Shown: positions 1,396 through 54,814 of the stretch, one piece after another | Numbering within the stretch: the first letter of the stretch is position 1 | Layout of the letters: every line of letters starts with the position of its first letter | Source: Verrucomicrobiia bacterium | Lineage (GTDB): Bacteria > Verrucomicrobiota > Verrucomicrobiia > Limisphaerales > UBA1319 | Assembly (NCBI GenBank): GCA_963664225.1 | Contig: OY760937.1 | Location: 5,134,744 to 5,198,743 of the forward strand | Direction of reading: 5' to 3' | Length of the DNA: 64,000 nt | The notes under the pieces: model-generated | What the model saw: only the letters and a program-made list of their open reading frames with translations | What the model was told of the DNA's origin: nothing | Databases searched by the model: none | Program-made: the position numbers and the translations under genes

Positions 1396-1647
1396 AACTC
1401 AATTCCGCATTCCCACTTGGGGAATAAAAAAGTCGGTAGATGATTCTCTCCGACTTCGGCGCGCTGGCTGACCAGCCCAAGTTTCCATTGCTAACACAAA
1501 AATAGAGGCAGCCAAGAAATGAGTCAAGCTTCAAAAACTCAAAACTCGGTGCCTAAATACAGTACCAATGCCGATGAAATCTCGAAAAACCAATCAACGC
1601 GCTCTGCAGGACTGCCCGTCCCTTAAAACAGTGCTTGATCGATATTT

Positions 1648-2526
1648 CTAAAAATCCACAGCTTCGATTGCCGTTAAAGTTACATGAAGCTGCGCCGTAA
1701 GCAACTCCACATCCCGCTGGTCCAAAACCAGCGTCTTCCCGCCTTCGATCGCCAGAACCCGGATTCCCACTTTGGCGCAGGTTTCGATGGTTTTCGGTCC
1801 GGTGCAGGGGATGTCAAACCGCATGTCGTGGTTTTTTTTGGCCACCTTGATTGCAACAGCGCCGCCTTCCTTGCCTGCCAGTTCACCTCCCCGGGCCAGA
1901 CAGGCATCTGTCCCTTCAAAGCCCTCAACAGCAAGCACAACGCCATTCTTAACCACCACAGTCTGGCCGATATCCAGACGGGAGATTTCTTTGGCGATTC
2001 GCAGGCCAAATGCCACATCCTCCGTTTGGTCGTTGGTTAATGGCCTGCCGAGTCGGAACCCCTCTTTTGGCATCAAGGGTTTGAGCCAGGGAAGGGCCGG
2101 AATGAGTGTGACACCACCTTTTTGAAGTTCATCGGCAACAGCTCCAAAGATGGTGTGCGCATTTTTTTCCTTCAAGCGGAGAAGCAAACTCAAGGCTCGC
2201 AGGTCCGGCCGCAAGTCAAACAGGTTTTTCGGGGCGATTTGGCCCGCCATGACGCATTGAGTGATTTTGCGATCTCGAAATGCGGCAATGAGCTTTGAAA
2301 GTTGGCCGATCTTCAGCCATACAATCTCATCGACGAACCGCGCCAGTTCGGGATTGGTTTCGCCATCGAAGGCGACAGCCACTAACCGCCGCACTCCCAT
2401 GCGCCTGGCCTGTTCGCAAAGCAGCATGGGCAGGTTCCTGTTTCCCGCAATCACACCGAGTGAATCCGGCTGGTCCGGGCCTGTCTGAATGTTATTTGAA
2501 GCAGCGCTCGCTCTAGGCTCGTTCAT
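1648..2526 (-). CDS. DUF1009 / LpxI-family protein (UDP-2,3-diacylglucosamine hydrolase-like)
   Basis: 292 aa; N-terminal LGVIAGNRNLP motif and overall layout match the LpxI_N/LpxI_C family; no other lpx genes nearby. Confidence 0.55.
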   Translation of the reverse strand: MNEPRASAASNNIQTGPDQPDSLGVIAGNRNLPMLLCEQARRMGVRRLVAVAFDGETNPELARFVDEIVWLKIGQLSKLIAAFRDRKITQCVMAGQIAPKNLFDLRPDLRALSLLLRLKEKNAHTIFGAVADELQKGGVTLIPALPWLKPLMPKEGFRLGRPLTNDQTEDVAFGLRIAKEISRLDIGQTVVVKNGVVLAVEGFEGTDACLARGGELAGKEGGAVAIKVAKKNHDMRFDIPCTGPKTIETCAKVGIRVLAIEGGKTLVLDQRDVELLTAQLHVTLTAIEAVDF

Positions 2527-3035
2527 GTTTGGTATCGTTTGTAATGGATGAATAACCGACCGGATGATGCGAATTCAATGTTTATTGGTGGGATCGATCT
2601 GCGATGGGGGGATTGCGCGACCTGGTTTGCAGTTGCTTCTATTATTCGCATTTTTTGTTGGACGATTCAAAGCGCATCAACTGAATATTTTGGCAAAAGT
2701 GTGCCGGATAACCTGTCACAGTAAAGATTCCAGTGTGACAGACTGACTCAAATGGCACAGGTTGGAATTCGCGATTGATGGCTTTAATAAAAACGTAAGT
2801 AGTTTAATCGGAATTAATTATATATAAATATACTCCAATGGCATCTTAATTGCTGGAAGGGTGCCAGTTACGGATGAGCGGTTAGGGTATTACTATGGAA
2901 GCCGCCACTGGTGCCTGAAGGCCGAATTGGATTGGGATCCCAAAAAAGGATTCCCATGACGATGAGGGCTTCGGGCTGAATATGTGGTGGGATGGGTTCA
3001 GTTCATCGTTGGATTGAAAAATTTATATAAAGAAT

Positions 3036-4976
3036 ATGGCAAAGGTACTTGGCATTGATTTAGGGACAACCAACTCTTGTATGGCGGTCATGGAGGGTGG
3101 AGACCCAGTGGTGCTTGAAAATTCCGAGGGCAAGCGCACCACGCCATCGGTGGTGGCATTTACAAAGACAGGCGAACGTTTGGTGGGTGAGGCGGCCAAG
3201 CGCCAGGCTGTGACCAATTCGCGCAATACGATTTATTCCATCAAGCGATTCATGGGGCGCAAGTTTGACGAGGTCCAGGAAGAGATCAAACGCATCCCCT
3301 ACAAGGTCGTGCGCGCCAGCAATGGAGACGCCGCGGTGGAAGTGGAAATCGACGGCCAGCCCAAACTGTTCAGCCCGCCCGAGATTTCGGCGATGATTCT
3401 GGCCAAGCTCAAAGCCGATGCGGAGATGCGCCTGGGCGAGAAAATCACGCAGGCGGTGGTTACTGTTCCCGCCTATTTCAACGATTCTCAACGCCAGGCC
3501 ACCAAGGATGCCGGTCGCATCGCGGGTTTGGAAGTGCTGCGTATTATTAATGAGCCGACGGCCGCATCACTCGCCTACGGTTTGGACAAGAAAAAGGACG
3601 AGAAGATCGCGGTTTACGATCTGGGCGGCGGCACATTCGACATCTCAGTGCTCGAAATTGGCGATGGCGTTTTCGAGGTCAAGGCGACCAACGGGGATAC
3701 GCATTTGGGCGGCGATGACTGGGATAACCGGATCATGGATTGGATTCTGGATGAATTCAAGAAGGACCAGGGAATTGATTTGCGCAAACAGCCAGACGCC
3801 TTGCAACGCATCAAGGAGGAGGCTGAAAAGGCCAAGATCGCGTTATCGAGCGCGCAGCAATATGACATCAACCTGCCTTTCGTGACGGCGGATGCCTCCG
3901 GGCCCAAGCACATTTCAACCAAGCTGACCCGGGCAAAAATGGAGCAGTTGTGCGACGATTTGTTTGAGCGCACGGTCATTCCGGTGAAGAATTGTCTGCG
4001 GGATGCGGATCTAAGCGCGGCCAAGATTGACGAGTTGGTGCTGGTGGGTGGCATGACCCGCATGCCGCGCGTGGTCGAGACGGCGCATACGCTGGTGAAC
4101 AAGGCCCCGCATCAGGGAGTGAACCCGGACGAAGTGGTGGCCGTGGGCGCCGGCATTCAAGGCGGCGTGCTCAAAGGCGACGTCAAGGACGTGCTGTTGC
4201 TCGATGTGACCCCGCTGTCGCTGGGCATCGAAACGTTGGGCGGAGTATTCACGCGCTTGATCGAGCGTAATACGACTGTTCCCACGCGCAAATCAGAGAT
4301 TTTCTCCACGGCATCGGACAACCAGCCCGGGGTTGAAATTCATGTGCTGCAAGGAGAGCGGCCGATGTCCCGGGACAATAAGACGATCGGTAAATTCCAA
4401 TTGACGGACATTCCTCCGGCCCCTCGCGGCATGCCGCAGATTGAGGTGACTTTTGACATCGATGCCAATGGCATCTTGCATGTCAGCGCCAAGGATCTGG
4501 GCACGGGCAAGGAGCAGAAAATCACGATCACCGCCAGCAGCGGCCTGAGCAAGGACGAGATCGAGAAGATGCGCAAAGAGGCGGAACTCCATGCGGAGGA
4601 TGACAAGCAGCAACGTGAATCCATTGAGGCGCGCAATGAAGCCGATAATGGGGTTTATCGCTCGGAAAAAATGCTGCGCGATAATGCGGATAAGATTTCA
4701 GCGGGTGACAAGGAGAAGATTGAGAAGGCGGTGGTTGCGGTCAAGGAGGCGCTCAAAGGCACTGATGCCGCGGCGATCAAGACTGCGAGCGAGAAACTCA
4801 ACGAAGCCTGGCAATCTGTTTCCGCGGAACTTTACAAGGCGGCGGCGGACAAGGCCCGCGCTGAGAAACCTTCTGCGGGTGGACCTGATCCCGCATCCGC
4901 TCCCAAGGATTCGTCCGGCAAGAAGGATGACGGTCCCATCATCGATGCGGAAGTGGTCGATGACAAAAAGAATTAA
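3036..4976 (+). CDS. dnaK: Molecular chaperone DnaK (Hsp70)
   Basis: 646 aa; [11 protein letters not shown] and DLGGGTFD motifs; full Hsp70 architecture. Confidence 0.97.
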
Positions 4977-5114: not shown

Positions 5115-5408
5115 ATGGCTATGAACCTTAAACCGCTCGGAGATCGTATCCTCGTGGAACTGGTCGAAGAGAAGGAAGTTAAGAAGGGTGGCATCATCAT
5201 TCCCGATGCCGCGAAGGAAAAACCGACCGAAGCGACCGTTGTGGCGCTGGGCACGGGCAAGTTAGACGATCAGGGCAAGAAGATCGCTTTTGAAGTCAAA
5301 AAGGGCGACCGGGTGCTGATCAGCAAATATGGCGGTACGGATGTCAAAGTCGAGGGCAAGGAATACAAGCTGCTCAATAGCGACGACATCCTGGCGATCA
5401 TCGATTAA
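5115..5408 (+). CDS. groES: Co-chaperonin GroES
   Basis: 97 aa; typical Cpn10 sequence ([10 protein letters not shown]...GDRVL). Confidence 0.95.
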
Positions 5409-7094
<1,686 letters not shown>

Positions 7095-24937: not shown

Positions 24938-26374
<1,437 letters not shown>

Positions 26375-26402
26375 CCAATCCTGCTGTTGCTCGTTGTTGG
26401 GG

Positions 26403-26434
26403 TGGCGTTGCTTTCTCAGCGCCACTCTTTTTTA
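26403..26434 (+). terminator. Rho-independent terminator after gdhA
   Basis: GTGGCG-ttgctttctcag-CGCCAC hairpin followed by TCTTTTTT. Confidence 0.65.
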
Positions 26435-26585
26435 ATGGTCTTCCGCTCATTTTGTCGGTTCTGCCCATCATTCTCGCCGACATCTCACTCCTGTAAGTAT
26501 TGATTCCGTTGCTTTCTTGAGGGCGCAGCCATCGAAAGGGGGCTGGTGCTCCCAAAATGTGTGCAAACCGAAAGTGTGGAGCTGC

Positions 26586-28620
26586 GTGCGGATGGGTATT
26601 GATCACAGGGGTTCTTGCGGTATGCTTGAAAACGGCACCGGTACGGTGTTCTTTTTGAGAGTGCTTTTGGAAAGCGCCAAGCAAAGTTTGGTGGCTGTAG
26701 TCAAATGCAACGAGTTGATCATGATAACAGGTCGAGAGTCATGTAGCCGCGTCCAAAGCGTGGTGGGGCGACCCGCCGCGTTCAAGCTGGGCAAGGCAAA
26801 GGTGCGAGCCGTAGCGTCTGCGAACTCGATTCAGCCTCGTTACTCTAAAGCGGGAGTGGCCAGCCTGTCAGAGAAGGTGAAGCCAGCATTGGAGGGGAAG
26901 ATTCGACCAGAAGCACCCTTCAAGCTCCCCGGGGTCAGAGGAGACAGCGCGTACCCAAACAACCATCAGGAACTTGGGAGACCCTGCCTGAACCTCGGTC
27001 CCGAGACCGGGGAACGCACGTCGGGAAGCCATAACCGGCGGGCGCTCAGGATCAGGGAGTCGGACGGGCTCATAGTAGCTGCGAAATCCCGGTCAAGCCG
27101 GGATGGAGCCAAGGAGCCCTGGCCAGAGTCAAGCCGAGTCAGAGGGAACTGGAGCTGATTGAAGTGAAAACTTCCACGACAGAACAAGCGGTGGAGGAAC
27201 TTTCCTTTCGGGAAGCGATCCTGCCGCCCAAACTTCAGGAACTGAGACAGAAGCTGGGCCGGAAAGCCAAACAAGAGAAGCGATTCCGCTTCTACAGCCT
27301 CTACGGACTGGTGTTCCTGCCGGAGGTGCTGCAAGCGGCATGGGCTGCGGTGCGGCGCAATGGCGGGGCACCGGGCGTGGACGGAGTGAGCATCGACCAG
27401 ATCACCGCGACACCTGAAAGTGAAGCGGCGTTTCTGGGAACGATCAGGCAGAGCCTGCGGGACAAGACCTACCGCGCCCAACCGGTGCGGCGGGTCTATA
27501 TACCGAAGGCAAACGGAAAACTGCGGCCACTGGGAATCCCGACGGTGAAGGACCGGGTGGTGCAAGCGGCGGTATTGCTGATTCTGGAGCCCATCTTCGA
27601 AGCGGACTTTGAGGATTGTTCCTACGGGTTTCGGCCCGGACGGTCGGCGCACGACGCATTGCAAACCCTCCAAAAACACCTGAAGGAGGGGAAGAACGCA
27701 GTGTATGACGCGGACCTGTCCGGATACTTCGACAGCATCCCTCACGACAAGCTTCTGGCTTGCGTGCGGATGCGCGTGGTGGACGGCGCGGTTTTGGGAC
27801 TCATCCGGCAATGGCTGGCGGCCCCCGTGGTGGAACCTCCCCAAGGAGAGGAACCGCCTCGGGTCAACCGCCGGGATCGGGGCACGCCGCAAGGCGGAGT
27901 CCTCTCTCCGTTACTGGCCAACATATACCTGCACTGGTTCGACCACCTGTTCCAAAGGGCGGATGGACCGGCGCACTGGGCGGATGCCCGGCTCGTTCGC
28001 TATGCGGACGACTTTGTGGTCATGGCCCGGTATATGGGTCCCAAGCTGCGAGCATGGATTGAGGAAAAGCTGGAGGGCTGGCTCACACTGGAAATCAACC
28101 GGGACAAAACCCGGGTGGTCAACGTCAACGAGCAAAGCCTGGACTTTCTGGGCTACACCTTCCGGTATGACCGGGATCAATTCGGCAGGGCGTTTCACTA
28201 CCTCAACCTGTGTCCTTCGGGCAAGGCGATGGAACGGGAGAGGCAGGCGTTGCGACTGCTGATCAATGCCGGGCAAAGTCATACGCCGCTGCCGGAGTTG
28301 ATCGGGCGGATCAACCGTCATTTGCGGGGTTGGAGCAACTACTTCAACCTCGGACAACCCCGACGGGCCTTTCGCCAGATCAACCACTTCGTGAGAGTGC
28401 GGCTGGGCAAACACCTGCGACGACGAAGCCAGCGGGGCTGGCGCGTCCGTCAGGGAGTCACGCTCTATGCCCATCTCGAAACACTGGGTCTGAAGGCATT
28501 GTGAATGCAATCTGGAAAAGACGACTCTGGCGAAAGCCGGATGTGGGAAATCTGCATGTCCGGTTTGACGAGGGAGAGGTGAGCGGCGGTCATTGGCCTT
28601 TGCGCCTTTCATCCCGTGCT
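26586..28620 (+). mobile_element. Group II intron (boundaries approximate)
   Basis: A GTGCG 5' motif lies about 580 nt upstream of an RT/maturase ORF. A domain-V-like hairpin (AGCCGGATGTG...CATGTCCGGTT, with the AGC triad) follows about 30 nt after the ORF stop. The element sits between gdhA and a MATE transporter gene. Confidence 0.6.
27164..28504 (+). CDS. Group II intron-encoded reverse transcriptase/maturase (no endonuclease domain)
   Basis: 446 aa; RT domains with RYADDFVV; C-terminal maturase (X) domain; ends without an HNH region. Confidence 0.9.
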
Positions 28621-28700
28621 CTCCTCTCTACTCTACTGGATTCTTTGCAAAAAATGCCAATGGCCTTCAGAATTTGGCCAGCTTCCTGTTGCCCGTATTA

Positions 28701-30113
28701 ATGACGATGTCTAAACACAAATCCAGTGAGGCTGGAATGGCTGAGGTGCTTGCCATCTCGTTGCCGATGGTCGTTTCACAGGCCTGTGACACGGTCATGG
28801 TGTTCACGGACCGTTTGTTTCTTGCGCGGTTGAAACCGGAGTTGATGAACGCGGTTTTGGGAGGCGGCTTGACGGCGTTCATGATGATGTCGTTTTTCTT
28901 TGGGTTGCTGGGATTCACCACCGCGCTGGTGGCCCAACATCTGGGAGCCAGTCGCAAGAGGGATTGCGCTGTGGTTTTGACGCAGGCGCTGATTTTCGCC
29001 TGTATCGCGTATCCGCTCATTCTTGCGTTGCGGCCGGCCGGACATGGCTTGTTCCAGATCATGGGGGTGAAGGGGGAACAGCTTGGTCCGCAGATCGAGT
29101 ATTTCGATATCCTCCTCTATGGATCGCTCATCAGTCTGGTTCGTTTGTGTCTGAGCGGCTATTTCTCCGGTATCGGGCGCACGCGGATTGTCATGATTGC
29201 GTCGTTTGCCACCATGCTCATCAATGTCGGACTGGGTTATGCGTTTATTTTCGGAAAAATCGGCATTCCAGCGATGGGAATCCGGGGCGCGGCCTTTGCA
29301 ACGTTGATAAGCGGGGCCGTCGGACTGGTGATTCTGGCGCTTGCTTACTTTGGTGAAGGTAATCGCAAGGAATTCGGCGTGATGCGGGCATTTCATTTTG
29401 ACCGGCCGCTGGCGGGTAAACTTCTTCGGTATGGTTCACCGACCGGTTTTGAGATGTGTCTGAACATCCTGGCGTTTAATGTCATGGTGATGATGTTTCA
29501 CGCCATGGGGGCATCGACAGCCACGGCGGCCACAGTGGTTTTAAACTGGGACTTTGTTTCGTTTGTTCCGTTGATTGGCATCGAGATTGGCGTTACCAGT
29601 CTGGTAGGCCGATACATGGGCGCCGGAGAACCTGACAAGGCGCATCAATCGGTGATGTCCGGCTTGAAACTGGGGTTGTTCTATTCGGCCATTGTGTTTG
29701 TGTTTTTTGCCGGATTCCCTGGCATGCTGGTGGATGTGTTTCGGCCAGTGGGCCAAAGTCTGGTATTTGATGCCGCAACGCCCACGGCAATTTTCATGGT
29801 GCGAACGGCCTCGGTATATGTGCTGGTCGAGGCCATGCTGTGCGTATTTATCGGGGCTCTGCGTGGTGCGGGGGATACCTTTTGGGCGATGCGGATGTCA
29901 GTCATCCTCCACTGGACCACGGCGGTTGTGTTGGTGTTGCTTTTGAGGGTTCTTTATCTGTCCCCGGAAGTGGGCTGGCTGGCGATGGTGTGCTTTTTCC
30001 TCGTCTTTTCGGTGGTTGTGTTCAAGCGATATCGCGAGGGAAAGTGGAGAGGTATCCGTCTGGTGGAAGGGACGGTTGCGGCGCATGCCGGGCCAGTCAA
30101 CGAGAACATCTGA
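28701..30113 (+). CDS. MATE-family multidrug/efflux transporter
   Basis: About 470 aa with 12 TM segments; MATE (NorM/DinF-like) sequence pattern. Confidence 0.8.
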   Translation: MTMSKHKSSEAGMAEVLAISLPMVVSQACDTVMVFTDRLFLARLKPELMNAVLGGGLTAFMMMSFFFGLLGFTTALVAQHLGASRKRDCAVVLTQALIFACIAYPLILALRPAGHGLFQIMGVKGEQLGPQIEYFDILLYGSLISLVRLCLSGYFSGIGRTRIVMIASFATMLINVGLGYAFIFGKIGIPAMGIRGAAFATLISGAVGLVILALAYFGEGNRKEFGVMRAFHFDRPLAGKLLRYGSPTGFEMCLNILAFNVMVMMFHAMGASTATAATVVLNWDFVSFVPLIGIEIGVTSLVGRYMGAGEPDKAHQSVMSGLKLGLFYSAIVFVFFAGFPGMLVDVFRPVGQSLVFDAATPTAIFMVRTASVYVLVEAMLCVFIGALRGAGDTFWAMRMSVILHWTTAVVLVLLLRVLYLSPEVGWLAMVCFFLVFSVVVFKRYREGKWRGIRLVEGTVAAHAGPVNENI

Positions 30114-30404
30114 TTTCAACGGCCACACTTGATGACCGGGGCAGGGGCATTCCGATCCCTGTCCCGATCAAAATCCATGATTTACAAAACAAAGCTCGTT
30201 TTATAATCAACAAAAGTCCCGTGGCATGTATCTTGTTTGTGACGGGTTGCCTGAATTGCAGAGTCCACCAGGCCTGCGCCTGGCTCCAGGAATAGTTGAC
30301 AATATTTGGCATTTATACAGACTGTCTTGACAGACAATATCAGCTTTTCTTTGATGCTTTGGAACAGTGCGTTTCAATTTAGAGGTCGGTAAACCAACGA
30401 TAAT

Positions 30405-31016
30405 ATGACAACGACAATTCTCGCAACAACGCTGGTCGAAGGGTTGCTCGTGTCAATGCAGTTCCTGGTGTTCCTGTCGATGGCCATTGGGGGGCTAATA
30501 TGTCTTGGTTTTGCGGCCATTTTTGGAGGACACCACGATGGCGAAATGGGACACGATATCGGCCATGTGGATCATGCCGGTGATCATGCCAGCGAACATG
30601 GCACTGGCCCGTCTTTTTTGTCGCCAAGGGTGTTTCTGGCGTTCCTGACGGGTTTCGGTGTGGCCGGAGCCATTGCCACGGTATATGGAGCGGGTCCCGG
30701 CCTGGCGACCGGCATCGGCTTTATTCCCGGTTTGGTCATGGCAATCCTTGCATGGTTTGTCGCATATTACCTTTTCAAGGAGCAGGTCAACTCCAGCATT
30801 CGTCCGGGACAGGTCGTCGGTTCCATCGGAACCGTTGTCACAGCGATTCAGGCTGGTGGTCTCGGCGAAATCAATGTTTCGGTGAATGGCCAGATTGTGC
30901 CGTACACGGCCGTGGCCGAAGATGGTGAAACTCCTTTTCGGGTTGGAACCCGCGTCAAAGTGATCCGTGACCTTGGCGACAAAGTTTCGGTAATCAAGGA
31001 GACGGGTGGCATTTAA
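30405..31016 (+). CDS. NfeD-family membrane protein (partner of SPFH/flotillin)
   Basis: 203 aa; N-terminal TM helices plus a C-terminal OB-fold-like soluble domain; directly upstream of the flotillin gene. Confidence 0.6.
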   Translation: MTTTILATTLVEGLLVSMQFLVFLSMAIGGLICLGFAAIFGGHHDGEMGHDIGHVDHAGDHASEHGTGPSFLSPRVFLAFLTGFGVAGAIATVYGAGPGLATGIGFIPGLVMAILAWFVAYYLFKEQVNSSIRPGQVVGSIGTVVTAIQAGGLGEINVSVNGQIVPYTAVAEDGETPFRVGTRVKVIRDLGDKVSVIKETGGI

Positions 31017-31075
31017 GGTGACGGCACCAAGGCACCGTGAAACGCAAAGGGAATTAAAACAGCGAAAGGAAGACT

Positions 31076-32911
31076 ATGATCATTCATTCAATGTTGGCGG
31101 AAATAAATTACGCCAGGGCGGTTGTTCCAGCGCTAATTGTGGGGTTTTTCATTGGCATGCTCTTCATCGTGTGGGCCATGACCAAGCGCTACAGGCGCAT
31201 TCCCCCGAATGCAATTGGCGTCATCTATGGCAAACGCCGCACTCAGATTACCGGTCCTGACGGCCAGAAATCGGAAGTGGGCTTCAAATTGGTATCCGGC
31301 GGCGCGGTCTTCATTTGGCCGATCGTTGAGGAATACGCGGAAATGTCCACCGAAGCGTTTCAGATTGAAATCAGTGAGGATAATATCCCATCGAAGAAAA
31401 ACGTTGGCGTCACTGTCTCGGGTGTCGCCACCTGTCGCATTTCTCCGATTCCCGAAGAGCAGATGAACGCCGTTCAAAACTTCCTGGGAAAAACGTTGGA
31501 GGAAATCAAGGGGATGATCGGTCAGATTCTCCGTGGTCACTTGCGTTCGATTGTCGGTGGTCTCGAAGTCGAGGAACTGCTGCGCGAACGATCCAAGTTT
31601 AACGAGATGGTCGTCAAGGAATGCTCGCCCGAACTCTCCCGCATGGGCATCCGGATTCTGACTCTGGTCATTCAGGATGTTAAGGACAAGGAGGGCTACA
31701 TTGATGCCCTTGGAAAACAGGCGGTCGCCATCGCCAAGCGGGATGCGCAAATTGCCACCGCCGAGGCGGAGCGGGAAACGAAGGTCAAGACCAGCGATGC
31801 CATACGCACGGCAGCCGAGGTCACGGCGCAAAACGATGCCTTGATCAAGGAGGCGGAAAAGAAGCGCGACATTCAAGTGGCTCAATTCCGGTTGGAGACG
31901 GCCACCAAGCAGGCTGAAGCGGACATGGCAGGCCCCCAGGCCAAAACCAGGCAGGAGCAAATCCTCGCAGTCCTGGAAGCCCAGAGGGACAGTGCCGCCA
32001 CCGAAGCTCGCACGAAAGTGCAGGAACTCGAGGCGCAGCGCAAACAGAAGGAATTGGAGGCAACCACCATTGTCACCGCCCAGGCCACAGCGAAAGCTTC
32101 AGTCATCAAATCCGAGGGAGAACGCAGCGCCGCGACGGTTCAGGCCGAAGCGCGCAAAAAAGTCGCCGAGCTTAATGCCGATACCGCCCGGCTTGAAGCC
32201 GAGGGACATCGCAACGCCCTCATTCTTGAGGGCGAAGGCGAGGGAAAGAAGCTTCAAACCATAGCCGAGGCCCAGGCCATTGCCACGCAAAAGACGAAGA
32301 CTGCGGAAGCCGAGGGCGAACGTGCCAGCCTGCTGGCCCAGGCGGATGGAACTAAAGCGGCCAGACTGGCCGAGGCGGCCGGTCGTGAACAATTCCTTCT
32401 CGCGGAAGCCAAAGGGAAGCAAAGCATGCTTCTGGCTGAGGCGGATGGTGCTGATAAAATGGCCGAGGCCATGAAAAAATTGTCCGAACAGGGCAAATTG
32501 ATCCTGGTTCTCGATCGTCTGCCCCACCTGCTCGAAGTCGGCGGCGAAGCGGGGCAGAAGATCGCCAAGGCGGTTTTCGATCCCATCGGCGTGGGTGTCA
32601 GCAAAATCGGCAATGTGACCATCACCGATCTCGGCGGCGGCAACACGGCGAAGAATGGCTTGTCCGCCATTGGGAACCTCGTTCCTCAAATCGTGGTGGA
32701 CTTCTTCACGCAGGCGAAAGCGCGTGGCATAGATCTCACGGAGCTTCTCAAGGCTTTGAAGATGGATCCGGCCCAATTGACCAGCATGCTCAATCCAACC
32801 GCGGAATCACAGCTTCCAACAGATGGTGCTGCTGAGGCTGCGGACTCTGCGAATCGGACTTCGGCACACAAGAGTGCCGGCGGCAACGCCACAAGCACCG
32901 AGGCCAATTAG
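31076..32911 (+). CDS. Flotillin-family SPFH/band-7 protein (FloT/YqiK-like)
   Basis: 611 aa; N-terminal TM segment, SPFH domain, long Ala/Glu-rich coiled-coil flotillin region. Confidence 0.85.
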   Translation: MIIHSMLAEINYARAVVPALIVGFFIGMLFIVWAMTKRYRRIPPNAIGVIYGKRRTQITGPDGQKSEVGFKLVSGGAVFIWPIVEEYAEMSTEAFQIEISEDNIPSKKNVGVTVSGVATCRISPIPEEQMNAVQNFLGKTLEEIKGMIGQILRGHLRSIVGGLEVEELLRERSKFNEMVVKECSPELSRMGIRILTLVIQDVKDKEGYIDALGKQAVAIAKRDAQIATAEAERETKVKTSDAIRTAAEVTAQNDALIKEAEKKRDIQVAQFRLETATKQAEADMAGPQAKTRQEQILAVLEAQRDSAATEARTKVQELEAQRKQKELEATTIVTAQATAKASVIKSEGERSAATVQAEARKKVAELNADTARLEAEGHRNALILEGEGEGKKLQTIAEAQAIATQKTKTAEAEGERASLLAQADGTKAARLAEAAGREQFLLAEAKGKQSMLLAEADGADKMAEAMKKLSEQGKLILVLDRLPHLLEVGGEAGQKIAKAVFDPIGVGVSKIGNVTITDLGGGNTAKNGLSAIGNLVPQIVVDFFTQAKARGIDLTELLKALKMDPAQLTSMLNPTAESQLPTDGAAEAADSANRTSAHKSAGGNATSTEAN

Positions 32912-33063
32912 CTCCGATCCAACGTTCATAATTCAAACCGGCTGTCGTGAAATGACGCAGCCGGTTTTTTATGAAGTTTGGAAACGGATATCCTCAGAAC
33001 TTTTTCTGCCAATTTGAAATACTTTGTCACGTCTTCGCACTTTTCAACCACTGATGCGACGAT

Positions 33064-35268
33064 ATGATGATAGCCAGAATGACTCCCGAGGCCACCAGTG
33101 AGGATGCGGAATTGGTCAACGCCAGCCTCGCGGGCAATCGCGAGGCGTTCGGACAGATTGTTTCGCGCTATCAGTCGCTCGTCTGTTCGCTGGCTTACAG
33201 CGCCACTGGCAGTCTAAGCCACAGTGAAGATCTGGCGCAGGAAACCTTTCTCACCGCGTGGAAACACCTGGCCGAATTGCGCGAACCGGCGAAGCTGCGC
33301 GCGTGGCTTTGCGGGATCGCGCGCAATCTCATCAATAGTTCGCTGCGAACACAAGTACGCGAGCCAAGCCATCGCGCCGAATCGCTGGATGTAATCACCG
33401 AATCGCATTCGCCTGAACCATCGCCCGTCGAACGCGCCATCAGCCAGGAGGAGGCGGATATTCTGTGGCGCTCGCTGGAGCGGATTCCGGAAAACTATCG
33501 TGTGCCGCTCGTCCTGTTTTATCGGGAACACCAATCCGTCGAAGCCGTTGCTCAAAATCTGGAATTGGAGGAGGACGCGGTGAGACAGCGCCTGTCGCGC
33601 GGGCGAAAACTGCTGCAGGAGGAAATACTGGCATTTGTGGAAGGCGCGCTGGAAAAGACTTCGCCGGGCAGGACGTTCACCCTGGCGGTAGTCGCCGCGC
33701 TGCCGATCGGTGTCACTTCGGCCACAGCGGCAACGGCCAGTGTCGCCGTGGCCAAAGGCGTGACGGGTGCAAAAAGCACCTTTGCGCTGGGCGCGTTGGT
33801 CGGATTGATGGCGATGCTGGGGGGTATTGCGTTCTCATGGAAGACAGCCGTGGAGGACTCAAAATCTCTGCGCGAAAGACGCTTCATGGTCCGAATGGGC
33901 TGCTTTCAGCTCGCTTTTTTCGTGGTTTCGATGGGAGCGGCCATGTATTTGCTTCCGAAACTTTCCGAGCGGCCTTGGACTTTCGGCCTCTTTCTGGCTT
34001 TGCTGATTGCAGCCAACGTCGTCAACGGGGTTGTTGTGCTTACCTATATGGTCCGCAGGCGGCTGGAAATCGGCATGGAAGAGGGCACATGGACCGAGTC
34101 GCTTGCGGGTGGACCGGATAATGTGAACAGGCCCAAAGCGGTTCGCAGGGCATTCAAATTGACGATTCCATTTCTGATCATGCTGGCGGGCATGGTTGTC
34201 GCGCTGCCGTGGAAACAGCATTGGATCAGAAGCGCCATCGTGACGGGGGCGGACGTTCTGATCATCCTTTGGTTTTTTCGCCGGACTCTGCGGCAACTGT
34301 GTTTCCAGAATCAGCCGCGCCTGAAATCCAAGCTTCCGGAGTTTATGCAAAACCCTTTCATCAAGCTTTCCTTCATGCTCTTTATCACCATGCTCGTCGC
34401 GGGTGTTGGTGGAATTCTGCTGCCGTTTTTTCTGAATCCCGAGGCGATGAAATCGGGTATCCCTGTTGCGACATGGCTGCGTCCGTTTGGCCTCTATTTT
34501 TTGGTCGCCGTCCTCGTCTATGTCATCGTGGCCCTGATCTTCTTTCGACGGCGCCAAATCCTCCCGAACTGGAAATGGCTCGCCGGCAAGTTGGACATGC
34601 CGTTTTTGAATCAACTTCAGGCAATGACCCAGGGACCGGACGCCGTCTTCAAGAAGACTTATGCGCCGCTCTTCCAGCAACTCAATCTTGGGCAGGACCA
34701 ACGCGTTCAATTGAAGGATTTGGTCCTTAAGCGGACCATGGTCGGCGTTCGCGTGGGCATGACCCTGATGAATTCGAAGCTCGACGCGGCAAAGCGCACC
34801 GAACTCGCACAGGAAACCAAACGCGAAACCGATGGTTGGAATACGAAGATCAAGGAATACTTGGGCGCGGAGAATTATGCGCAGTTTCAGCAATTCGAAA
34901 AGACAGTTCCCGACCGGACGATGCTCAATATGTTCGCCAAACGGTGTGACAAAACCGCTACAGCATTAAGTCCGGAGCAACAGGCGCAACTGCTGCAGGC
35001 GCTGACGCAGGCTCGCGAGGAATACCCATGGACCACGGAGTTAAGCCGTCGGAACCAGAACGCCGGCGATTACGAAGGGTTGTTCACGGAAGCCAATATG
35101 AGCACCTTCGCATTGGAGGAGGAGCAGTTCGACCGCCAATTTCTCGCACAGGCACAACTGATTCTGAACCCGGAACAACTCGCGGCGTTTGAAAAACACC
35201 AGCAACGTCAGCGCCAATCCCAGGTTGCCCAATTCAAAATGGCCGCAAAACTGTTCGTGCCAAAATGA
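33064..35268 (+). CDS. ECF sigma factor fused to a polytopic membrane domain and a periplasmic LTXXQ (CpxP/Spy-like) domain
   Basis: The N-terminal 190 aa carry sigma-70 regions 2 and 4 (DLAQETFLTAWKHL; [19 protein letters not shown]). About 7 TM helices follow. The C-terminal roughly 200 aa contain LSPEQQAQL and LNPEQLAAF LTXXQ-like repeats. Confidence 0.75.
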   Translation: MMIARMTPEATSEDAELVNASLAGNREAFGQIVSRYQSLVCSLAYSATGSLSHSEDLAQETFLTAWKHLAELREPAKLRAWLCGIARNLINSSLRTQVREPSHRAESLDVITESHSPEPSPVERAISQEEADILWRSLERIPENYRVPLVLFYREHQSVEAVAQNLELEEDAVRQRLSRGRKLLQEEILAFVEGALEKTSPGRTFTLAVVAALPIGVTSATAATASVAVAKGVTGAKSTFALGALVGLMAMLGGIAFSWKTAVEDSKSLRERRFMVRMGCFQLAFFVVSMGAAMYLLPKLSERPWTFGLFLALLIAANVVNGVVVLTYMVRRRLEIGMEEGTWTESLAGGPDNVNRPKAVRRAFKLTIPFLIMLAGMVVALPWKQHWIRSAIVTGADVLIILWFFRRTLRQLCFQNQPRLKSKLPEFMQNPFIKLSFMLFITMLVAGVGGILLPFFLNPEAMKSGIPVATWLRPFGLYFLVAVLVYVIVALIFFRRRQILPNWKWLAGKLDMPFLNQLQAMTQGPDAVFKKTYAPLFQQLNLGQDQRVQLKDLVLKRTMVGVRVGMTLMNSKLDAAKRTELAQETKRETDGWNTKIKEYLGAENYAQFQQFEKTVPDRTMLNMFAKRCDKTATALSPEQQAQLLQALTQAREEYPWTTELSRRNQNAGDYEGLFTEANMSTFALEEEQFDRQFLAQAQLILNPEQLAAFEKHQQRQRQSQVAQFKMAAKLFVPK

Positions 35269-35308
35269 CGGGGAACGGTTTGCCATCACGCGGCAAAACT
35301 GGAATGCG

Positions 35309-38173
35309 TTATTTCGCCACTTTGCCTGGGTCATCCCATCGCACGGTGCGCAGCTCATACGGATGCAGTGAGAGTTCCAGTTTATCACCTTGCAAGGGCA
35401 GGGGACTGCCGGTCACGGCATTATAAGGCGTGCCGGAATTCAACAGACGGATTTTGATGCCGTTCTTTTGTTTGCTGCTCGTGTTCACCACCGCCATCCA
35501 TGCGCCTTGCTGCTCCGTGCGGATGACGCGCACAGCGATGTCGTTGTCGTCGCAGGCGTCCGTGATTCTCTTGCTGGGCAATGCGGGCAATGCGAGATAA
35601 TTGGCGTTGAACTCCCGCACGTAGATGGGAAAGCCGCGTCCGAGATTGTTGCCGAGCAGGTAGCCCAGCATGCTTGGATCGCCATTGGCCATGGCCAGCG
35701 CCTCGGCCATCATGCAGGCGGGGCCGGCCCGTTCGAAATCGGCCACGAAATAGCCAAGCTTTTCCCCGTCCCTGGTATCGAACATCATGTTTTCGTTCAG
35801 TGAATAATGCCGCACAAGTGCCAAACCCGCAGGACCGCGAAAGGCATCGAATGTCGCAGACGATTTCACCGTGTAGCTTCGATTAAAGCAATGGGTCATG
35901 AGCACTCCGGGCGTCTCACGGTAGCGTGCGGGATCGGCGGGTGGATTGCCGTGATTGATCTCCCATGCGCCCCAATTGAGCGGCGCTGCCTGCAGGGCCT
36001 CCAGATACAGATTCCCATCCAGGACACTTTGCACACTGATCGGCCGGATGGCTTTGCCGTCCACGATTTGACCCGGTGCATTGAGTATGCCGCGCCAGCC
36101 TTCCACATCGTCGGTCACCAGTTTCTTTTCCCAGGTTGGAAAGGCCGGACCCGGCTCGCCCGCTTCAGCGGTAAACAGCACCGCAGCCTCCGGGAGACCA
36201 TTGGCGCGCAGATAATCGCGAATGGCGGCGAGAAATTCGCGGCGTTTTCCAAACCACCACGCCTCGTATCGCTCCAGCAACTTTTTGTCGGCGATGAGTT
36301 CGGCGCGCGTCACTGCATGGCCGTCGTTTCCTTCCCGGGCAAACCGTCCGCGCGTTGACTCGCCAAAGCCCATCGGCAATTGCCAGCGCGGCCGCAGCCA
36401 GATGCCGTCGAAGCGGCACTTGTCTTTGAGCCGGACCACGGTGACATCGAGCATCTTCTGGAAATCCGCCAGTGTATCCGGATCGGTGATGTCCGCGTTC
36501 GCACTTTCGACCCACGAAATGGCTGTAAACGCATCGTCGCGTGTGAGCGGCTGGCAGCGGCGCTCGTAACCCAGACCCCGGCCTCCCTTGCTTCCCGCGT
36601 ATTCGTAATACGGCATCAACTCAAGACCGCAGTCGCCCATCAGCGAAACTATCTGCTCCCACAAATCCTTCGTGCCCGAGGCGAAATGGATCCAGTCGTT
36701 TCCGCCGTGGGGCGTCGGATCCCAGTGCTGGCACGCGCCAAATTCCAAGAGGTCCTTGCTGAAGGTGTTCATGCCCAGAAACCGCATCTGGTTTGCCTTG
36801 TAGCGATACCAGTCGAGGCGTTCTTTAACACCGCGCTCCGTGAGTTTGTCGCTCTCAATGACTCCATCAGCCATTTCTTCGCGCCAGGTAATATGACGTC
36901 GCGGGAGTGGCTCTGGCGGCAATCGAAGCGGTTGGGTGAGCGCCGTTTTATTGGGAACTTCCAGCAGTCGGATGCGCGACACCGCCGCTCCATGTGACGT
37001 GGGATCGTTCGGCGCGGAGAATTGCGCGATCACCACATCAAAGCCGTCCTCGATGCCCAACTTGCGTTCCCCGGGTCCTCGAATGAAGGCGAGATCAGGG
37101 AAGCGATCATGAAGGTTAAAATAAAGCGACCAGGTTTCATGGCCCCCGGAAAGCGGAATTTGCAACGACTCGGGATTGCCGTTCACATACTTGGCGTTAA
37201 GGGCGTCGCCGATGGTGTTACCGGTATGAAACCCACGCGATGTCTCGTTTCCGCCGTTCATCACCACATAACTGCGCGGTTGATCCTCTGGATATTCGAC
37301 CGCCAGCACATACGCCGCGCCCGGTTTGAGAAGTTTCCACTGGCCGATGCGAAACGCCATGTAGCTGCTCTGGTTGGTGGCCGGTTGCAGCACCCGGTAG
37401 GGGCGACCCAGAATTGTTTCGACACGGCTTGCGCCAGCCGGGTTCTCGCGAAACAAATGCCCCGGCGCCGCACTCCCACAATCCACCTCATCCACCACCT
37501 GAACACGACCGAACGGGGGCATTTCCACCCACGGCCGTCGCGCGACTTCCTCCCTTGCTTTCGCCAGTGCCGCTTCACGTTCCGCGCGCGCGGCAGCCTC
37601 AGCGGCCAATTGCGCCTGACGTTTTTGGAAACCCTCAGGGGTGAATTCGTACACGGCCAACCCGGTGAAATTTGCCCCGGCCGATTCCAGTTCAATCCTC
37701 AAATAACGTGATGTAACTTCAAGGGGGCAATGCACCCATTGCTGATAAAGACCACAATCGTTTGTGAGAACCTTTTTCCAATTCCCCGGTTCGCCGGTCG
37801 CCACAGTCCAAACGCCTGTGCCGTGCGTGTCATAAAACCACAGGGAGGACAGGTGCCGCGTCTGCCCCAGGTCGAGCGTGGCACTAAAGGGAAATTGGTT
37901 CCAATACTGTGCCGAAATGTTCCATCCTCGCCCTCCATGCTTTGGCGCGGCATTGGTGGTGCCGGGAGTGAAATCCTGTTCCTCGCAAAAACCCGAGAAA
38001 TCCGCCTGCTCCGAACTGCTGCGGATCATTTGTGGCATCAGCGGAATCCTCGCCTCCTGGGCATAAAGACTGCTCGTGGCCAGCACGTTGACCACAATGG
38101 CCAGACTGGCCAGCATGGGCCAACTGCAATTTTGCCAATTTGACATGGGCGGAATGTATGGCAGGCGCGGCAT
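35309..38173 (-). CDS. Large secreted protein with an N-terminal discoidin (F5/8 type C)-like domain; possible glycoside hydrolase
   Basis: 954 aa; signal peptide; an N-terminal galactose-binding-like domain of about 150 aa; a long uncharacterized catalytic-looking body. The true start is probably one of the internal Met residues before the signal peptide. Confidence 0.5.
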   Translation of the reverse strand: MPRLPYIPPMSNWQNCSWPMLASLAIVVNVLATSSLYAQEARIPLMPQMIRSSSEQADFSGFCEEQDFTPGTTNAAPKHGGRGWNISAQYWNQFPFSATLDLGQTRHLSSLWFYDTHGTGVWTVATGEPGNWKKVLTNDCGLYQQWVHCPLEVTSRYLRIELESAGANFTGLAVYEFTPEGFQKRQAQLAAEAAARAEREAALAKAREEVARRPWVEMPPFGRVQVVDEVDCGSAAPGHLFRENPAGASRVETILGRPYRVLQPATNQSSYMAFRIGQWKLLKPGAAYVLAVEYPEDQPRSYVVMNGGNETSRGFHTGNTIGDALNAKYVNGNPESLQIPLSGGHETWSLYFNLHDRFPDLAFIRGPGERKLGIEDGFDVVIAQFSAPNDPTSHGAAVSRIRLLEVPNKTALTQPLRLPPEPLPRRHITWREEMADGVIESDKLTERGVKERLDWYRYKANQMRFLGMNTFSKDLLEFGACQHWDPTPHGGNDWIHFASGTKDLWEQIVSLMGDCGLELMPYYEYAGSKGGRGLGYERRCQPLTRDDAFTAISWVESANADITDPDTLADFQKMLDVTVVRLKDKCRFDGIWLRPRWQLPMGFGESTRGRFAREGNDGHAVTRAELIADKKLLERYEAWWFGKRREFLAAIRDYLRANGLPEAAVLFTAEAGEPGPAFPTWEKKLVTDDVEGWRGILNAPGQIVDGKAIRPISVQSVLDGNLYLEALQAAPLNWGAWEINHGNPPADPARYRETPGVLMTHCFNRSYTVKSSATFDAFRGPAGLALVRHYSLNENMMFDTRDGEKLGYFVADFERAGPACMMAEALAMANGDPSMLGYLLGNNLGRGFPIYVREFNANYLALPALPSKRITDACDDNDIAVRVIRTEQQGAWMAVVNTSSKQKNGIKIRLLNSGTPYNAVTGSPLPLQGDKLELSLHPYELRTVRWDDPGKVAK

Positions 38174-53418: not shown

Positions 53419-53652
53419 CGATTCCAGATGCGTATCATCCAGCCCCGATTAACCAACCGCACCCGAATTTCGCAATCGTCCAATCCGCATAATCCTGTAG
53501 GGATTGCAATCTTTCAGCCCCGGGTCGCGAGGAGCGAGCCACCCGGGGTCATCGACCACCCTCCATAATTTCCCCAACGCTGTCGGCGTTGCATCAAATT
53601 CGCATCCGGCATTACAACACGGTCCGAGTCGGCCCGGGGACGTGCTGATGGT
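53419..53652. repeat. Copy 1 of a roughly 234-bp repeated intergenic element (candidate leader RNA of the mla operon)
   Basis: About 87% identical by eye to the copy at 54581..54814. Contains conserved hairpins GCAATCG...GATTGC and CCCCGGGT...ACCCGGGG. Confidence 0.7.
53514..53552 (-). other. Candidate leader mini-ORF (MTPGGSLLATRG) with a GGAGG Shine-Dalgarno
   Basis: On the minus strand, GGAGG-N7-ATG followed by a 12-codon ORF whose coding region forms the CCCCGGG...CCCGGGG hairpin; conserved in the second repeat copy. Confidence 0.35.
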
Positions 53653-54580: not shown

Positions 54581-54814
54581 CGATATCGGATGCGTATCAT
54601 CCAGCCCCGATCAACCAACCTCACCCGAATTTCGCAATCGTCCCGTCCGCTCAATCCTGCAGGGATTGCAATCATTCAGCCCCGGGTCGCGAGGAACGAG
54701 CCACCCGGGGTCATCGTTCACCCTCCATATTTTTCCCAACGCTGTAGGCGTTGCATCAATTTCGCATCCGGCATTGCAGCACGATCCCAATCGTCCCGAG
54801 GACGTCCTGAAGGT
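54581..54814. repeat. Copy 2 of the roughly 234-bp repeated intergenic element (candidate leader of the membrane-protein gene)
   Basis: Direct repeat of 53419..53652; same hairpins and the same minus-strand mini-ORF. Confidence 0.7.
54676..54714 (-). other. Candidate leader mini-ORF (MTPGGSFLATRG) with a GGAGG Shine-Dalgarno
   Basis: Same GGAGG-N7-ATG + 12 codons architecture as in copy 1; it differs at one codon, the seventh (Leu to Phe). Confidence 0.35.

Follow-up and report, generated by a model that had tools for sequence, protein, structure and literature searches.

The 64-kb stretch of DNA analysed here, hereafter the window, belongs to contig OY760937.1 of a Verrucomicrobiia bacterium and is numbered from its first nucleotide. 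On its forward strand, a group II intron lies at positions 26670-28636, between gdhA and a gene encoding a MATE efflux transporter. With a probability that we set at roughly 0.93, it is an intact and recently mobile bacterial intron, which combines a six-domain ribozyme with an endonuclease-less reverse transcriptase (RT)/maturase encoded in domain IV. The element is of a known kind and the refinements that it brings to a well-known system are modest, its points of interest being its 5' end and a possible structural bias in the choice of its targets. The locus is organised as follows.

25037-26374 (+): gdhA, NADP-specific glutamate dehydrogenase, the upstream neighbour, outside the element (NF006929, 773 bits)
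26399-26434 (+): intrinsic terminator of gdhA, a 12-bp stem followed by TTTTTT (terminator scan), 236 nt upstream of the intron
26670-28636 (+): complete group II intron of 1967 nt, 100% identical to positions 2507-4473 of a second locus, L083, two empty-site paralogues of which give its ends
27164-28504 (+): intron-encoded protein of 446 amino acids (aa), GTG start, in domain IV; RT domain aa 113-333, maturase domain X aa 360-427
28701-30113 (+): MATE efflux transporter gene, the downstream neighbour (TIGR00797, 189 bits)

Ribozyme and encoded protein

A preliminary description of this DNA had proposed a group II intron carrying an RT/maturase without endonuclease, and covariance models bear this out. 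Rfam model RF02005 (domains I-IV) matches positions 26711-26944 with 70.4 bits (E 1e-17; gathering score 49) and RF00029 (domains V/VI) matches 28532-28636 with 43.4 bits (gathering score 40), both being the sole Rfam matches in the window. The relatives of the intron found at other loci, referred to below as the family, allowed a consensus fold to be computed with RNAalifold from 16 members; it contains 121 pairs, 80 of them with compensatory changes, and was mapped onto the window to delimit the domains.

26677-26977 (+): domain I, closed by a stem pairing CCAAG with CTTGG (consensus fold); contains the RF02005 match
26980-27061 (+): domain II (consensus fold)
27065-27120 (+): domain III (consensus fold)
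28534-28566 (+): domain V, whose catalytic triad (AGC) occupies 28535-28537; matched by RF00029 and invariant in relatives
28570-28633 (+): domain VI, with an internal extension and, 7 nt from the 3' end, a bulged A at position 28630 (fold)

The hairpin with an AGC triad that had been noticed after the open reading frame (ORF) is thus domain V, and the 3' motif ...CUACUCUAC that ends the intron is conserved in all relatives. The non-coding 5' part of the intron measures 494 nt (26670-27163), not about 580 nt as first estimated. At the contig end of one related locus (L034, positions 5430-5507), the 3' terminus of an intron, ...CUACUCUAC, precedes the 5' terminus of another copy, with 8 nt (CGCCTTTG) in between; this arrangement is either a head-to-tail intron pair or an assembly wrap-around of a repeat. 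Furthermore, a 213-aa ORF (26517-27158, +) overlaps the 5' exon and domains I-III, and an equivalent called gene, with no Pfam match, exists in L083 and in L084. It is almost certainly ribozyme sequence and not a gene.

The 446-aa protein, which is on record as an exact match (P0001), has RVT_1 (2.4e-35) and GIIM (2.3e-13) as its only Pfam domains, a YADD motif encoded at nt 28001-28012, and a score of 387 bits against the NCBIfam equivalog TIGR04416 (group II RT/maturase; cut-off 300). No HNH or D/En endonuclease domain was found in it with Pfam and NCBIfam, about 19 residues remaining past domain X. Its closest solved relatives are group II RTs, the best one being the RT of the class C intron GsI-IIC, with 208 bits and an RT-domain identity of 45%. 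A retron or defence RT was ruled out, as the corresponding models reach 20-52 bits against cut-offs of 200-600.

Boundaries of the intron and a second copy

The very same protein is encoded on ENA contig ERZ21878371:contig_9 (L083), in another neighbourhood with an IS3-family transposase upstream. The copies of the window and of L083 are identical over 26668-28636, that is, over all 1967 of the 1967 nt of the intron, while their flanks are unrelated; the first mismatch downstream falls at 28637 (T in the window, C in L083). The L083 copy sits in a tandem array of units of about 390-445 bp, and two downstream units are uninterrupted, reading ...TTTGAGCTCTCTG^CGGTTGATTAATTCC and agreeing with the exons of the occupied unit, once joined, at 235 positions out of 240. 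These paralogous empty sites read ...GAGCTCTCTG^CGGTTGATT... at the insertion point. Taken together, the two empty units and the identical copy fix both ends of the intron to the nucleotide: it runs from GAAAGCG to ...CUACUCUAC, without target duplication, and its 3' end ...CUAC at 28636 agrees with the AY consensus. Occupied and empty sites within one tandem repeat make of L083 a clean natural experiment, and the presence of an identical copy at an unrelated locus beside unoccupied sites attests to recent mobility.

Other relatives delimit the same element. The closest relatives in GTDB genomes show 77-78% nucleotide identity, and BLAST alignments with them start at about 26665-26669 and end at 28639; the L083 copy and at least 15 relatives share nothing with the window upstream of 26668. 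A contig of 1945 nt made of the intron alone, as is typical of a repeat collapsed in assembly, likewise begins at window position 26668.

Part of the L083 tandem unit (2327-2436, 4685-4794 and 5130-5229) is about 74% identical to a GC-rich, hairpin-bearing repeat of about 110 nt that occurs twice in the window, at 53501-53607 and 54652-54769. This repeat may be REP-like.

Recognition of the exons by base pairing

Covariation of the ribozyme with the sequences flanking about 40-60 different insertion sites served to locate its exon-binding sites (EBS) and the intron-binding sites (IBS) of the exons.

26869-26873 (+): EBS1, CAGAG, in the loop 26868-26873, identified by comparing pairing with own and foreign exons
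26665-26669 (+): IBS1, TTTTG, with which the 5' exon ends; 3 Watson-Crick and 2 G-U pairs with EBS1
26842-26846 (+): EBS2, ACTCT (ACUCU in RNA), in the loop after a conserved CCUCGUUA
26658-26662 (+): IBS2, AGAGT, 5/5 Watson-Crick pairs with EBS2; covaries in the family
26937 (+): EBS3, A, which pairs with the first base of the 3' exon, T28637
28637 (+): IBS3, T, the first base of the 3' exon; covaries with EBS3

Over the family, EBS1 pairs at a mean of 5.5 of 6 positions with its own exon against 3.9 with foreign exons, and EBS1-IBS1 covariation in about 58 relatives sets the register of IBS1. Since the EBS1 complement lies at 26665-26669, these five nucleotides must be exon. A 5' splice site at the GTGCT of 26661 was considered and ruled out for this reason and because the copies are identical only from 26668. 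EBS2 and IBS2 pair at four or more of five positions in 65% of the sites (35% in mismatched controls), and EBS3 corresponds to a single column of domain I whose pairing with position +1 is Watson-Crick in 95% of cases over 41 distinct sites. The presence of EBS2 and EBS3 makes the RNA IIB-like and excludes a IIC RNA.

The two copies fit their sites differently. At the window locus IBS2 and IBS3 are a perfect fit and IBS1 requires two G-U pairs; at L083 IBS1 (CTCTG) is perfect, three of five IBS2 positions are paired and the C at IBS3 is mismatched. The insertion site is read by base pairing and the gdhA terminator, 236 nt upstream, is not the target. Splicing at these sites would produce a ligated-exon junction across 26669/28637 predicted to read ...GAGAGTGCTTTTG|TGGATTCTTTGC.

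The non-canonical 5' end

Alignment of the 5' ends of the family brought out a peculiarity of the window intron.

26670-26676 (+): 5' terminus, GAAAGCG

In most relatives, IBS1 is directly followed by GUGCG and then by the domain I stem. On the other hand, the GAAAGCG end is common to a subfamily comprising the window intron, L083, L001, L002, L012, L076 and L093-L103, at no fewer than 10 different insertion sites. With respect to GUGYG, this end has AAA in place of U2 and retains G1 and the GCG located before the domain I stem. Further 5' ends found in the family (GAGCG, GAGUG, GUACG and GUAGCG) indicate that position 2 is plastic in this lineage. Moreover, one unchanged protein is found at six or more different sites, each with the GAAAGCG end and a matching IBS1, and this end thus appears compatible with recent mobility. 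Position 26670 is observed as a DNA boundary; its use as a splice site in the RNA is predicted.

GUGYG is a consensus with published exceptions and not an absolute requirement. Indeed, a group II intron with a 5'-UUGCG end has been reported (PMC7923331). Given the other group II intron features observed here, the non-GUGYG end is no bar to membership.

Hairpins and repeats in the 5' exons

The 3' portion of the 5' exon at the window locus can form a hairpin that is distinct from the gdhA terminator and, for its part, does abut the insertion site.

26619-26665 (+): hairpin in the RNA of the 5' exon, with 20 pairs including 7 G-U pairs; IBS2 and the first part of IBS1 lie in its 3' arm, and 4 nt separate its end from the splice site

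Folded as RNA, it reaches -18.9 kcal/mol (z -3.05), a value equalled by 1 of 200 shuffled sequences. Folded as DNA, the same segment is not significant, and the idea of a DNA structure upstream of the intron at this locus was rejected on that ground.

The family displays a comparable tendency. The last 60 nt of the 5' exons have a mean z of -2.06, versus -0.12 for control windows taken 300 nt upstream, and z falls below -2 in 43% of the sites versus 6% of the controls. In about one quarter of the sites (e.g. L005, L031, L036, L048/65 and L050), a long and near-perfect palindrome ends exactly at the insertion site. The palindromes of L005, L031, L036, L048, L050, L065 and L066 have stems of 17-30 matched pairs, with 1-4 mismatches allowed; those of L008 and L022 have 9-12 pairs and the 5' flank of L027 is likewise palindromic, the arms being tandem IBS-like units of 9-10 nt. 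Many targets of the family are furthermore tandem repeats, of 9-13 nt, of an IBS-like unit that run on into the 3' exon. At L083 the signal is weaker (z -2.26) and no hairpin adjoins the splice site; a hairpin is hence not required.

These data make a structural target bias a possible lead at the level of the family, of which the window locus is a pointer: IIB-like introns whose targets are unusually often hairpins. According to a 2021 paper (PMC7923331), reports of a role of upstream structure were lacking for IIB introns, and structure-assisted target choice has so far been described only for class C introns. In its full form, the proposal is that the GAAAGCG subfamily, centred on Verrucomicrobiota, splices and moves with that end and that it and the wider family, with full EBS1, EBS2 and EBS3 pairing, prefer 5' exons made of hairpins or of 9-13 nt tandem repeats of IBS-like units, the 3' foot of the hairpin being often exactly at the insertion site. 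We advance it tentatively and regard it as rather doubtful as a whole.

In L094 and L096 (1-548), the insertion site of a subfamily member lies beside a gene with a weak match to Y1_Tnp (IS200/IS605 or REP-associated transposase), a neighbour that may bear on the nature of the hairpin targets. In L001, the locus of the closest relative, an Acido-Lenti-1 RNA motif (RF01687, 46.4 bits, 2947-2992) is found about 500 nt upstream of the intron; a link between this motif and the family was rejected, as a scan of 44 further loci, related or reference, gave no such hit.

Phylogenetic placement of the protein

RT-domain sequences, aligned over 275 columns, were used to build a neighbour-joining tree with 300 bootstraps, with Ni.ha.I1 (class F/g3), Sr.me.I2 (g1), two class D RTs and two class C RTs (PDB alignments) as references and LtrA as outgroup; class F has a single reference and classes E, A, B and CL have none. 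The bootstrap values are the following.

Monophyly of the family with every sampled locus: 66%
Monophyly of the family core, from which L068, L069 and L079 are left out: 90%
Family with Ni.ha.I1: 51%
Family with class C: 3.7% (class C itself, 99%)
Family with class D: 4.3% (class D itself, 100%)

Identity in the RT domain amounts to 47% with Ni.ha.I1, 45% with class C and 36-38% with the class D references, and a profile of the 5' ends of the family also finds Ni.ha.I1 (E 6e-8). Furthermore, intron length and ORF size match those of the class F/g introns listed in Table S2 of Toro and Martinez-Abarca (PMC3552965). Among the four classes between which the preliminary description had left the choice (C, D, E or F), C and D are excluded by the protein tree; class F in the broad sense (F and g2-g4 of PMC3552965) is, by protein sequence, the provisional nearest, at 51% bootstrap and with class E unsampled.

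The Rfam subtypes were also tried as a class label and rejected as non-diagnostic: members of the family match D1D4-6, D1D4-4 or nothing, and subtype did not follow class. At L020, a second and different group II intron (1483-3350), immediately upstream of the family member, scores 189 bits with D1D4-6 and encodes a protein that groups with class D, which suggests that the D1D4-6 model was built on class D-type introns.

Gene context

As the preliminary description had it, the intron interrupts no coding sequence: gdhA, which stops at 26374, and its terminator precede it, and MATE starts after it at 28701. The 445-aa form of gdhA starting at 25037 is the called gene on record, as is the 470-aa form of the MATE transporter. 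The latter gene begins 64 nt past the end of the intron, and with a mobile element at such a distance upstream its expression may hinge on splicing or on an intron-borne promoter.

Homology with relatives L086, L088 and L089 stops at 26432-26434, i.e. at the gdhA terminator. In L088 and L089 (81-89% identity), the end of gdhA (26432) is almost immediately followed by the counterpart of window position 35309; compared with them, 26433-35308 is an 8.9-kb indel containing the intron, the MATE gene, a 203-aa protein, a Band_7 protein and a sigma-70-like gene, with the intron placed 237 nt in from its left edge. Among the relatives at this locus, the L085 contig breaks at the intron and L086, L088 and L089 are without the whole block. 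Exact-protein look-ups of MATE, gdhA and cluster members, and a search for the junction pattern in a metagenome collection, yielded no empty site for the window's own locus.

Weighing of the interpretation

Several points weigh against the reading of this element as an intact, recently mobile and class F-like intron. Its splicing and its lariat are predictions made from DNA, and its own locus offers no empty site. Its 5' end departs from the GUGYG consensus and its IBS1 pairs only with the help of G-U wobbles. The class call, moreover, comes from a neighbour-joining tree with one class F reference, no E, A, B or CL reference and 51% support, and D1D4-6, the Rfam subtype of the window intron, scores far higher (189 bits) on the class D-grouping intron of L020.

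The last two points feed the alternative that survives best, namely that the intron belongs to class D, to class E or to an unnamed lineage and is not class F-like, the more so as Zimmerly and Semper mention further unpublished classes (PMC4424553). We consider it unlikely, though worth keeping in mind. Class D is the direct partner of the family in 4.3% of the bootstraps, and the RT domain is closer to Ni.ha.I1 than to class D (47% versus 36-38%). Ni.ha.I1 also shares with the family a 5' GUGCGCC followed by the stem and a 3' ...ACUCUAC, it is retrieved by the 5' profile, and other members of the family match D1D4-4, as Ni.ha.I1 does.

That the copy is dead or immobilised, its odd 5' end and its weak IBS1 pairing signalling that splicing or movement has been lost, is very improbable. 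A GAAAG start instead of GUGYG, two G-U pairs among the five of IBS1 and two upstream hairpins that may impair transcription can be cited in its favour; they are countered by a 100% identical copy elsewhere beside unoccupied sites, by a full-length ORF with all its motifs, by EBS2 and EBS3 that fit the window site perfectly, and by the occurrence of the same end in relatives with 78-85% protein identity, among which one protein is present unchanged at six sites or more.

Even less credit can be given to a class C (IIC) intron that would recognise the stem-loop of a transcription terminator and insert behind it, as implied by the homing to terminator-proximal sites put forward in the preliminary description. 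The best solved relative of the protein is indeed a class C RT, the intron is closely preceded by a hairpin whose 3' arm is U-rich and 5'-exon hairpins are enriched in the family. However, an EBS2-IBS2 pairing is present and covaries, EBS1 involves 5-6 bp and not 3-4, the family joins class C in 3.7% of the bootstraps although class C itself is recovered in 99%, and many relatives as well as the L083 copy are without a significant upstream hairpin. The triad is AGC, whereas IIC introns are known for a CGC triad. The rationale of terminator homing is thus that of a class to which the window intron does not belong, and the gdhA terminator is 236 nt off.

Finally, the limits 26586-28620 initially given to the element can practically be discarded: GTGCG fits the textbook 5' consensus and a length of about 2 kb is plausible, but identity with L083 and similarity with all relatives run from 26668 to 28636, the nucleotides that flank the intron outside G26670 and C28636 are contiguous in the empty sites of L083, the EBS1 complement at 26665-26669 must be exon, and the window counts 133 GTGCG pentamers, fewer than the 179 expected from shuffled sequence. 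This GTGCG is a chance pentamer located 84 nt inside the 5' exon, the real end being GAAAGCG, and the limits were off by 84 nt at the start and by 16 nt at the end; the annotation of the intron should read 26670-28636.

A plausible course of splicing and mobility

For an intact group II intron, known group II biology (PMC4424553) suggests the following course. The intron would be transcribed jointly with its flanks, and the protein would bind its own RNA and assist splicing at G26669|G26670 and C28636|T28637, with branching expected at A28630. The resulting lariat-protein particle would then reverse-splice into DNA sites selected by EBS1-IBS1, EBS2-IBS2 and EBS3-IBS3 pairing. Because no endonuclease is available, synthesis of the cDNA would have to be primed by the nascent strand at a replication fork.

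Comparison with known systems

RmInt1 of Sinorhizobium meliloti, a class D intron, is the model of endonuclease-free mobility, by reverse splicing into single-stranded DNA of the replication fork and nascent-strand priming (PMC4424553). The window intron presumably follows this route too. It differs from RmInt1 in the class of its protein (36-38% identity to the class D references, grouping in 4.3% of the bootstraps) and in its targets, as RmInt1 homes into an insertion sequence and not into hairpins or intergenic repeats.

Class C introns such as B.h.I1 and GsI-IIC resemble the window intron in the absence of an endonuclease domain, in their small size, in their intergenic location and in the stem-loop of the 5' exon beside the insertion site (PMC1702495, PMC4424553), and their protein is about as similar as that of class F (45% in the RT domain). 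While IIC introns are without EBS2 and rely on an EBS1 of 3-4 bp and a hairpin, the window intron possesses all three EBS pairings, and its family groups apart in the tree.

The closest likeness is with class F introns in the broad sense, represented by Ni.ha.I1 (g3, from plasmid 1 of Nitrobacter hamburgensis) and by Ge.ur.I1 and Pe.th.I2, which have been characterised biochemically. They likewise encode an RT/maturase without endonuclease, measure about 1.9-2.0 kb with a protein of 430-446 aa, reside usually in non-coding DNA and have a IIB-like RNA with EBS1, EBS2 and EBS3. Ni.ha.I1, the nearest sampled protein with 47% identity in the RT domain, starts with GUGCGCC and the domain I stem and ends with ...ACUCUAC, as the family does. 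In Ge.ur.I1, repeated IBS1 motifs of the 5' exon led to alternative 5' splicing at sites located 9 and 19 nt upstream (PMC3753933), and similar repeated IBS1-like motifs are present here in the 5' exons of many relatives. On the other hand, protein identity with class F is only about 45%, with the grouping bootstrap at 51%, the window intron begins with GAAAGCG and not GUGYG, and its family is centred on Verrucomicrobiota, Acidobacteriota and Planctomycetota.

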